Origin: an uncultured Lachnospiraceae bacterium
GTDB lineage: Bacteria; Bacillota; Clostridia; Lachnospirales; Lachnospiraceae
Direction: 5' to 3'
Length of the DNA: 44,205 nucleotides
Assembly: GCA_947631695.1 (NCBI GenBank)
Contig: CANRMH010000001.1
Span: forward strand, 1-44,205
Shown here: piece by piece, positions 42,480 through 43,764 of the stretch
How positions within the stretch are numbered: the stretch's first letter is position 1
Layout: every line of letters begins with the position of its first letter
Notes under the pieces: generated by a model
The model's database searches: none
What the model saw: only the letters and a program-made list of their open reading frames with translations
What the model was told of the DNA's origin: nothing
Made by a program: the position numbers and the translations under genes

Positions 42480-42508
42480 TTGAAAAGGTAAACCCTATAT
42501 GCTAAGAT
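42480..42508 (+). promoter_or_regulatory. Sigma-A promoter of the small toxin mRNA
   Basis: TTGAAA, 17 nt, TAAGAT with TGn extension. Confidence 0.65.
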
Positions 42509-42574
42509 ACGAATAGGAACAATCGTGTTGCAGGGTGGCTGACCTCTATTCTACATAGAATGGGGGTGGTGCTG

Positions 42575-42664
42575 ATGAAGAACAAATTCAGTTTCAATGA
42601 TCTGATGCAGTTCGGTTTATTCATCCTGGCATTGCTGACATTTATTTATTTGATCTGTCATTGA
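42575..42664 (+). CDS. Putative type I toxin, 29-aa single-TM holin-like peptide (not in ORF track)
   Basis: MKNKFSFNDLMQFGLFILALLTFIYLICH*; RBS GGGGGTGG; flanking UTRs are complementary to each other. Confidence 0.78.
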   Translation: MKNKFSFNDLMQFGLFILALLTFIYLICH

Positions 42665-42675
42665 TGTTATAAAGC

Positions 42676-42773
42676 ATAGAAAAACCACCCTATAAACTTT
42701 GACCAAGTGACCCGGGTGGAATTTCTATCTAAATTACGAGGTCAACCCCTTGTGGGCGATTGTTCCTTTTCAT
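42676..42773 (-). ncRNA. Putative antisense antitoxin RNA, about 100 nt
   Basis: Convergent promoter at 42808-42780; ends in hairpin CCACCC...GGGTGG-TTTTT (42728-42676); covers the toxin 3' UTR. Ends are estimates. Confidence 0.6.
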
Positions 42774-42779
42774 ATTTTT

Positions 42780-42808
42780 AATATAGCACATTTAACGGCA
42801 AGACGCAA
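42780..42808 (-). promoter_or_regulatory. Sigma-A promoter of the antisense RNA
   Basis: Minus strand TTGCGT, 17 nt, TATATT with TGn extension. Confidence 0.6.
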
Positions 42809-42832: not shown

Positions 42833-43300
42833 CTACAGTTCTTCCGTCTTAAACGCCTCGTAGCCCTCATAACAGTAGCTGTGGTCGATACCTTTCATAT
42901 AGACCTCCCGGCTGTCCACATCGCCGGTCAAGGCATTTTTCAACAAATGTTTGATCTCGATGTCCTTGATCGGACTGCGTTCCATGGCAAGGAGATAGTC
43001 ATCCTTGTCCACCCGGCTCCAGTCTACAACTTTGTGCAGAGCAGCTTTCAACATCAGATCCAGCCAAATGCGGGCGCTGCGTCCATTTCCTTCCCGGAAC
43101 GGGTGAGCGATATTTATTTCTATATATTTTTCGACGATCTCGTCAAAGGTGGACTGTGGCATTTTTTCGATGTTTGCAAGAGCCGCCTCCAGATACATCA
43201 CCGGTACAAATCTGAAATTGCCTTTTGCGATGTTCACGGTGCGGATCTTTCCGGCAAAATCGTAAATCTCATCAAAAAGGTATTTATGAATGGCTTGCAA
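42833..43300 (-). pseudogene. fic: 5'-truncated class III Fic-family adenylyltransferase
   Basis: Fic motif [12 protein letters not shown] and C-terminal inhibitory SYCYEG. No RBS at the TTG; in-frame Fic-like sequence continues upstream ([15 protein letters not shown]) and meets a stop with no start codon. Confidence 0.75.
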
Positions 43301-43364
43301 AGCAGAAAAAGCACCCGGCGTCAGCGTATGCCTCGGCCTGGTCTGAACAGTAACATCTTCCCAT

Positions 43365-43438
43365 CCGCCGCAGTGCGATCCCGCGGAACGCTTTTTGTTT
43401 CATAGGGGACAAAGTTTCCTGTGAAACAAAAAAGTGCG
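43365..43438 (-). repeat. Two-hairpin repeat, copy A, abutting the tRNA-Leu 3' end
   Basis: See copy B at 37524-37584. First hairpin TTTTTGTTTCACAGG...CCTATGAAACAAAAA could also serve as the tRNA terminator. Confidence 0.75.
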
Positions 43439-43595: not shown

Positions 43596-43624
43596 TTGAG
43601 AAATTTCTCTTCTTATGCTATGAT
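43596..43624 (+). promoter_or_regulatory. Sigma-A promoter upstream of hydG
   Basis: TTGAGA, 17 nt, TATGAT with TGn extension. Confidence 0.7.
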
Positions 43625-43733
43625 ATTTGAGTCGATTGACAACATACGTACTGATCATAAAGGAATCCCTGAGTGAAAAGGCGCGATATAAAATGAATGA
43701 TCCAGAAGGCGGTACACGTCCTTCTTTTCATGA

Positions 43734-43764
43734 CCTGCGCCCGCTCGGCGCGGGTTTTTCTTTT
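43734..43764 (+). terminator. Intrinsic terminator inside the hydG leader
   Basis: CCTGCGCC-cgctc-GGCGCGGG followed by TTTTTCTTTT, about 30 nt before the hydG ATG. Confidence 0.75.

Follow-up and report, generated by a model that had tools for sequence, protein, structure and literature searches.

Does a complete type I toxin-antitoxin module lie in the low-GC gap (37-40%) that separates a divergent MarR-family gene from a convergent Fic gene, truncated at its 5' end, in this Lachnospiraceae DNA? The window, i.e. the whole stretch of 44,205 nucleotides analysed, carries in this gap a cassette of ~330 bases (42480-42808) in which predicted promoters face each other around a hydrophobic ORF of 29 aa (Table 1). 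An earlier note had proposed a module of the TxpA/BsrG kind, and a sequence check of the window finds every element it named in its place. The general proposal is supported, as the ORF is conserved, the 5'-3' helix covaries and the convergent promoter and terminator are kept in relatives; the wiring it gave to the ribosome binding site, held by an ACCACCC segment, is not supported. Judged from the sequence, the locus is quite probably a self-contained, conserved cassette, in which a peptide of the TxpA/BsrE/BsrG superfamily would be the likely membrane toxin and the predicted convergent RNA the likely antitoxin, acting through the steps described below. The module is a branch of a known type I kind and no new class of system.

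Table 1. Predicted features of the cassette, in window coordinates.
Feature	Position	Strand	Basis
Sigma-A promoter predicted for the peptide mRNA (TTGAAA-17-TAAGAT; TG-extended -10)	42480..42508	+	consensus scan, 9/12
5' arm of the long-range 5'-3' helix P1; predicted mRNA start ~42514-42516	42515..42546	+	fold, covariation, RNAalifold
Local 10-bp anti-SD/SD hairpin, 42543-52 with 42557-66; first bases shared with the top of P1	42543..42566	+	pair counts, folds
Shine-Dalgarno (SD) region GGGGGTG (GGAGGTG in many homologues)	42562..42568	+	sequence
ORF of 29 aa, one predicted transmembrane helix; marginal score for the TxpA/Hol_Tox superfamily	42575..42664	+	sequence, profiles, pN/pS
Probable second anti-SD inside the ORF (codons A-L-L-T-F), can pair with 42558-42572	42629..42643	+	RNAalifold, pair counts
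Hairpin (core 42685-90 with 42714-19), then minus-strand U-tract (complement of 42680-84): predicted antisense terminator	42676..42728	-	
Predicted antisense RNA, ~97 nt	42677..42773	-	promoter and terminator positions
3' arm of P1, complementary to the 5' part of the antisense RNA	42738..42767	+	sequence, pair counts
T-rich tract right after the base of P1: predicted mRNA 3' end	42767..42779	+	U-tract counts
Convergent promoter predicted for the antisense RNA (TTGCGT-17-TATATT; TG-extended -10)	42780..42808	-	8/12 consensus

Alignment A1 has 36 rows, of which 7 are degenerate; a DNA profile of the other 29 was used to collect homologues and matched 184 of 185 loci. Its 203 matches reduce to 177 full-length copies with flanks, 161 unique copies and 131 below 90% identity. 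The ORF is intact in 122 of these 131, a count biased upward since 152 loci had been chosen by peptide alone; UTR and promoter features were unselected at that step. Conservation in relatives, which the earlier note had put forward as a check, is found both for the ORF and for the 5'-3' helix, which covaries. Both promoters it had placed are also present and conserved. The sense boxes are kept, with variable spacer, in 121/131 homologues against 5.5% of shuffled segments, the antisense boxes, likewise with variable spacer, in 120/131, and the facing pair in 111/131. The antisense promoter was left off the promoter scanner's list owing to its score of only 8/12.

The distribution of the module is patchy. 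The source genome carries two copies, 89% identical; a third, partial match is the second copy again, where contigs overlap exactly by 77 nt. DNA matches occur in at least 56 of 301 genomes of the family, a lower bound since only two candidates were scored per genome, and in 14 of 21 genomes of the genus. A phylum-wide draw of 301 genomes, holding only 2 members of the family, gave 2 carriers besides the source genome. Peptide patterns are found in at least 514 GTDB stretches and in 73 viral contigs; the 79 GTDB loci kept are mostly labelled Lachnospiraceae. Cultured commensals with relatives of the module include Blautia hominis KB1, Sellimonas intestinalis BR72 and Anaerocolumna aminovalerica. 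The module is also matched, in unannotated sequence, in three plasmid records of Enterocloster bolteae, and an annotated phage collection gave no module match. At E<=0.001 a profile search returns 353 proteins, many of which carry a long, spurious N-terminal extension, and none of seven exact peptide sequences is in a set of 15 billion proteins. Gene callers miss the module family, common though it is among gut Lachnospiraceae and on their phages and plasmids.

Two or three module copies are held by 17 of the 185 loci. Tandem arrays are seen at L030 (3 copies), L005, L011, L016, L018, L087, L092 and L093, and some of the extra copies (L016b, L030b, L030c) are without SD, 5' arm or reading frame. 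L029 is a further copy lacking SD or ORF.

The peptide is small (29 aa, below 60 aa) and hydrophobic (KD19 2.37). The Kyte-Doolittle scale and the YUNR U-turn motif were used in the computations. A pN/pS of 0.23 over 120 ORFs from the 131 copies indicates purifying selection, and conservation by codon position is 0.80/0.94/0.68 in the same ORFs. An upstream in-frame ATG at 42560 would give 34 aa; this start is rejected, being inside the SD hairpin, preceded by no SD and out of frame in copies such as L024 and L030a. The family has an N-terminal K-N-x-F-x-F-x-D-L motif and a truncated C-terminus ending in C-H or C-K, with the penultimate Cys kept in 90/122 ORFs.

Family profiles place the peptide at the margin of known toxins, and the comparison with the Pfam holin-like toxin family suggested earlier comes out divided. 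The window peptide reaches 20.7 bits against a cut-off of 23.3 for PF16935 Hol_Tox, which is passed by 9 of 37 hand-chosen homologues (23.5-25.1 bits; 36 of the 37 are from the set of 111 members), among them a peptide sharing 90% identity with that of the window. In the set of 111, Hol_Tox matches 14 members at E<=1e-4. The NCBIfam family matched by most members is ComI (NF052249; 69/111 at E<=0.01, best E 3.1e-5), for which the window peptide scores 18.7 bits. PepG1 (SprG1; NF041589) matches 15/111 members at E<=0.01 (best 0.0032), short of a family-level match, and leaves the window peptide unmatched. Among the PHROGs, phrog_9488 (unknown function) matches 92/111 members and a 'holin' family 10. 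The best structure-database match, PDB 7NS1 (SprG1-31), is non-significant (E 0.18), the ESM Atlas gives unnamed clusters and, as a lead only, one Hol_Tox cluster at 0.81, and ten database proteins looked up are all without names. 'Holin-like' is here a Pfam family name only, and as a label of activity it is putative.

A membrane toxin is not the only role such a peptide could have. Under the same antisense control it could be a conditional effector or membrane regulator, ComI-like or non-toxic like YhzE, and no general toxin. The accessible text on ComI (10.1101/2024.02.02.578676) has it kill competent cells only, and YhzE-2, of similar antisense layout, is not toxic according to the part of PMC2887945 at hand, which counts against the main reading. 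So does the missing cationic C-tail: the last 5 aa hold no K/R in 73/122 ORFs, one in 47 and two in 2, where the lysine-rich C-terminus is common among toxins of the TxpA/BsrG/SprG kind, in the accessible portion of PMC8309996. The retained penultimate Cys and the mostly ordinary chromosomal flanks, with one recombinase among 60 flanking proteins, point the same way. Against this, the ComI score is far under its cut-off of 55, and layered SD locking, patchiness, tandem copies and presence in phages and plasmids fit selfish toxin modules, as do the copies without SD or ORF, of the kind reported for inactive toxin-antitoxin homologues (PMC6393307, in part). A conditional effector is on balance rather unlikely, and the toxin reading is kept in what follows.

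The predicted mRNA (42516-42772) is strongly folded, with a minimum free energy of -87.9 kcal/mol against -62.8 ± 4.8 for shuffles (z -5.2; 0/200 as good). Its ends meet in P1. AGGAACAATCG at 42515 and its complement at 42757 occur once each in the window, and TGACCTC at 42540 is complementary to GAGGTCA at 42738. The 11-bp and 7-bp pairings proposed earlier are therefore both present, and P1 covaries; the final two pairs in the 7-bp helix, with 69/129 and 33/130 cells paired, are unconserved. In the P1 core 95% of cells are paired and 173 are changed on both sides, counts that overstate the number of events since the copies are related. In a 40-sequence subset P1, SD hairpin and terminator stem together are 88.6% paired against 84.7 ± 0.3 in shuffles, with 0/500 as high, and 17 of their 37 pairs show compensatory changes on both sides. 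By parsimony on a short, noisy tree that included the 5' arm, three P1 pairs have changed 4-15 times and two terminator pairs 5-6 times. Wobble pairs in P1 favour the sense strand (372 sense G-U against 43 A-C cells).

P1 may also mark the end of the mRNA. A terminator scan lists no terminator anywhere in the module and no separate hairpin after P1 in the window, a terminator-like site lies within 150 nt downstream in only 19/128 homologues, and the local 3' hairpin is weak (family median -5.9, window -4.7). At least five T within 8 nt follow the last G-C pair of P1 in 108/127 homologues, against a background mean of 2.5. By analogy with aapA1, for which the accessible part of PMC5416894 reports that the 5'-3' helix causes termination and that 3' trimming activates, P1 itself would presumably end transcription. 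The T-tract could alternatively reflect the A-rich start of the antisense RNA. In a subfamily (33/119 copies scored; L016, L020, L026-L028, L031, L081, L082 and others) the 5' UTR is ~14 nt longer, upstream of P1; the rows inspected show an extra 5' stem-loop together with a CCTTCC variant of the antisense terminator.

Translation is predicted to be controlled by a local hairpin around the SD, 42543-42566, which the earlier note had missed together with the ORF-internal anti-SD at 42629-42643. In the SD hairpin 95% of cells are paired, the sense strand is the more stable in 126/131 copies, and in 124/131 nascent or antisense-bound folds it is the dominant SD partner. Sequestration of the SD in the mRNA, general among type I systems, is thus predicted by folding and conserved. 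The first two bases of the hairpin also pair in the top of P1 (~120/130 copies), so that the two helices compete. For the window, the predicted cost of freeing the SD is lowest in full-length mRNA, at 5.5 kcal/mol; nascent forms need 11.5-13.4, and a form whose antisense target is blocked needs 12.0. The family medians are 7.7 full-length and 11.4 with the 3' region blocked. The full-length form is easier to open by more than 1 kcal in 114/131 copies, with 14 within 1 kcal and 3 reversed, and shuffling the 3' arm restores the lock in 22/25. In a positive control with real bsrG the minimum-energy hairpin grows from 5 to 9 bp and opening the SD costs 8.8 kcal/mol in place of 8.3, a shift small enough for opening energies to be suggestive and no proof. 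The 5'-3' helix, read earlier as a silencing layer, is on these values predicted to loosen the SD lock (5.5 against 12.0).

Of 1685 cells in the ORF-internal anti-SD, 1597 are paired; this element predominates as SD partner in 45/131 full-length folds, and at three codons its third position is fixed in 114-118 of 131 copies. It is held probable only, as amino-acid conservation fixes most of its bases and third positions just downstream are also conserved. A leader pairing, AGGGTGG with CCACCCT, was considered and its conservation rejected: 83% of cells are paired, 8 are changed on both sides, and the CCTTCC subfamily breaks it. It is predicted as a folding intermediate only.

Taken together, the cassette would work as follows. 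In the nascent mRNA the SD would be locked in the 10-bp local hairpin. Once the 3' end is made P1 would form, probably ending transcription at the U-tract behind it, and would draw in the bases at the start of the anti-SD strand, so that the SD is held less firmly (by the shortened hairpin or the ORF-internal anti-SD). Full-length mRNA would then be the weakly translatable form. The antisense RNA would pair with the last ~97 nt of the mRNA, probably from the hairpin loop, opening P1, restoring the full SD hairpin and making a duplex for RNase III. If the antisense RNA were lost, by loss of the element or under stress, the stable mRNA would yield peptide harming the membrane or envelope, damage that would stabilise the carrying DNA or arrest growth.

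The wiring proposed earlier differs from this scheme: there ACCACCC, just after the stop codon, holds the ribosome binding site, and the 5'-3' helix is inactivating and is trimmed for translation in the manner of aapA or hok. The complementarity between GGGTGGT (42564) and ACCACCC (42684) is real, at 7 bp, ACC is the dominant SD partner in 8/131 full-length folds, and aapA1 does work by 3' trimming in what is accessible of PMC5416894. The pairing is however predicted not to form (0.02 expected SD pairs) and does not covary: 79.3% of cells are paired against 79.0% in shuffles, 187/500 shuffles are as high, and the first pair is broken in 54/130 cells. The ACCACCC arm is changed in 45 copies, together with the other arm of its hairpin, and nearly all of these keep GGRGGTG as their SD. 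The covariation partner of ACCACCC is the antisense terminator hairpin, not the SD. In addition, 3'-trimmed forms ending at or before 42745 are predicted to be more locked (11.5-13.4 kcal/mol) than the full-length form (5.5). This wiring is very unlikely, and the local SD hairpin is retained as the lock.

An antisense RNA of ~100 nt ending at the hairpin had been claimed as well. Here the promoter is conserved and the terminator covaries; the RNA itself is predicted, with predicted ends giving 86-102 nt across homologues and overlap with the ORF in 0/122. Its fold is less marked than that of the mRNA (z -2.2; 3/200 shuffles as good). The terminator hairpin has 67 both-side cells, with arm variants CCACCC, CCTTCC, CCGCCC and others. 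That there is no antitoxin gene, the hairpin being an mRNA element only and the minus-strand promoter a source of transcriptional interference or incidental, would fit a hairpin more stable on the sense strand in 82/131 copies and on the antisense strand in only 49 (a count against the main reading) and a weak -35 in the window (3/6 consensus), but is most improbable given minus-strand boxes conserved with variable spacer in 120/131, at least five T in 8 nt on the minus strand after the hairpin in 131/131, and non-Watson-Crick stem cells that are mostly antisense G-U (41 against 10 sense).

With the convergent RNA taken as antitoxin, the hairpin loop is the likely site of its first contact with the mRNA. 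In the loop (42692-42713) ACTTTG is kept in 118/131 copies and the 3' half varies, also between the two copies of the source genome; SPbeta bsrG carries GTTTGG at the position of ACTTTG. The loop is a candidate for a shared contact motif joined to a specificity segment.

The closest known layouts are bsrE/SR5 and bsrG/SR4 of Bacillus subtilis, placed by T1TAdb in its BsrE/G/H class. Shared with these are the P1 helix, a local anti-SD/SD stem, an mRNA of 200-300 nt, a peptide of 25-35 aa (BsrE range), a convergent 3'-overlapping antisense RNA and its terminator hairpin after the stop codon (both predicted here). Unlike them, the module has no separate terminator stem-loop after P1, a predicted antisense RNA of ~95 nt that misses the ORF (160-180 nt in the known pairs), an SD without AGG in the window, and a peptide without cationic C-tail. 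The BsrE/as-BsrE descriptor of T1TAdb (Table S1 of PMC8594479, compared by eye) agrees in the P1 stem, the 20-40-nt 5' region, the local anti-SD stem with 3-10-nt loop, the 130-200-nt 3' region, the 200-300-nt mRNA and the 25-35-aa peptide. It departs in three points, so descriptor searches would likely miss the family: the SD motif is AGG (GGGGGTG in the window, GGAGGTG in many homologues), a terminator stem-loop SL5 is placed 3-10 nt after P1, and the antisense RNA is set at 160 nt ±20% with an ORF overlap of 3-30 nt (here 86-102 nt as predicted, with overlap in 0/122).

Sequence relationship to BsrG is faint. Rfam RF01412 (BsrG) aligns end to end (model positions 1-259) with 22 bits (E 0.0044) under a cut-off of 55, and gives 23 bits in 2/10 other loci and none in the remainder; the SPbeta control gives 210 bits. 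The family's DNA and peptide profiles do not detect SPbeta bsrG, a result against the main reading, and direct homology is unsupported, as the pairwise score of 88 lies within the shuffled range (68 ± 8, max 94). In bsrG/SR4 antitoxin binding extends the SD stem from 4 to 8 bp (PMC3834814, in part), which the predicted extension on antitoxin binding resembles. Such refolding is absent from bsrE/SR5 and txpA/RatA in the accessible part of PMC6562991, and this is counted against the main reading. The module would work like bsrE/bsrG, stands at the margin of the TxpA/Hol_Tox superfamily and lies outside the BsrG and BsrE families as defined. An L220 copy (L220:1501-1581, in G479 from another family of the phylum) encodes a 27-aa peptide ending RRKK and has P1, an SD hairpin and its own terminator, features that bridge the Lachnospiraceae branch to the Bacillus BsrE/ComI type.

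With the TxpA superfamily of Fozo et al. 2010 (PMC2887945), or Hol_Tox (TxpA, BsrG, SprG1; ComI related), the peptides share a single hydrophobic helix with an F-G-x-F-I-L/I-A-L core. The accessible part of the Fozo alignment holds BsrG, SprG1 and Paenibacillus larvae peptides, the last sharing FGMFILALLTF with the family consensus; SprG1 in the same part shares MxQFGLF. The module family differs in its K-N-x-F-x-F-x-D-L N-terminus, its C-H/C-K end and the absence of a lysine-rich tail, and no member of the branch appears in that part of the alignment or in the supplements searched. The aapA/IsoA systems of Helicobacter pylori, as far as PMC5416894 and PMC6733600 are accessible, share the 5'-3' helix, several anti-SD elements (one in the ORF) and a co-transcriptional SD lock. 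They differ in an unrelated peptide, in IsoA lying over the 5' UTR and in a 5'-3' pairing that sequesters the SD, where P1 of the module is predicted to loosen the lock. The type I systems of Clostridioides difficile (CD0956.2-RCd10 and others) share small clostridial membrane peptides, antisense antitoxins and occurrence in prophages and on the chromosome. Their toxins are described in the accessible part of PMC6563280 as peptides of 34-59 aa that end in a lysine-rich tail and do not resemble the toxins of B. subtilis in sequence; by this description the module family is set apart, having no such tail and not being independent of the TxpA group.

It is possible, and only tentatively proposed, that these copies form a large undescribed Lachnospiraceae branch of type I systems. 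In such a branch P1 would be sole mRNA terminator, partial SD unlocker (the completed transcript being active, the reverse of aapA/hok) and antitoxin target, an RNA of ~95 nt lying off the ORF and ribosome binding site would re-lock the SD from 110 nt away, and the peptide, which has no cationic tail and keeps a penultimate Cys, would have another or a conditional mode of action. The literature searched, peptide motifs included, gave no description of the branch; T1TAdb, TADB and small-protein catalogues could list it. The more than 130 divergent copies are a natural covariation set for asking whether the 'refold at a distance' of bsrG/SR4 is general, and likewise termination by a long-range helix. 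The module could also supply plasmid-stabilising or counter-selection parts for commensals that are hard to engineer.

Of 100 flanking proteins extracted, 60, from 30 loci, were compared; they share no common neighbour family, so the cassette is self-standing. The MarR/ABC and Fic neighbours are rejected as functional partners, as no Fic or MarR family is found at E<=1e-12 among these proteins; so are tRNA-Leu (a tRNA within 3 kb in 5/79 loci only) and hydG (module within 1.5 kb in 0/19 hydG loci of the genus). The Fic gene at window 42833-43350 (-) encodes an NmFic-type adenylyltransferase (NF046029, 270 bits, profile positions 33-177) with its N-terminal part missing. Its frame opens just after an 80-bp repeat, has no ATG start and runs in the same direction as the antisense RNA; the gene is probably a remnant. 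The ~80-bp repeat (window 43354-43434), directly 3' of tRNA-Leu(TAG), is dispersed, contains a long inverted repeat and has 24 blast matches (76-100% identity) on 22 contigs of the source genome; it is REP- or MITE-like, with no Rfam match. Upstream of hydG (window 43640-43760, also without Rfam match) a promoter at 43596-43624 and a strong terminator at 43732-43756 could delimit a regulatory leader or small RNA of ~130 nt.

Two further loci have neighbours of interest. At L046:3255-3911 the module lies directly upstream of cas5, a single case in 30 loci that recalls the link between toxin-antitoxin systems and CRISPR in C. difficile (PMC6563280, in part). At L016:2834-2972 a Clostridiales-1 RNA (RF01699, 62 bits) lies ~1 kb from a tandem pair of modules.
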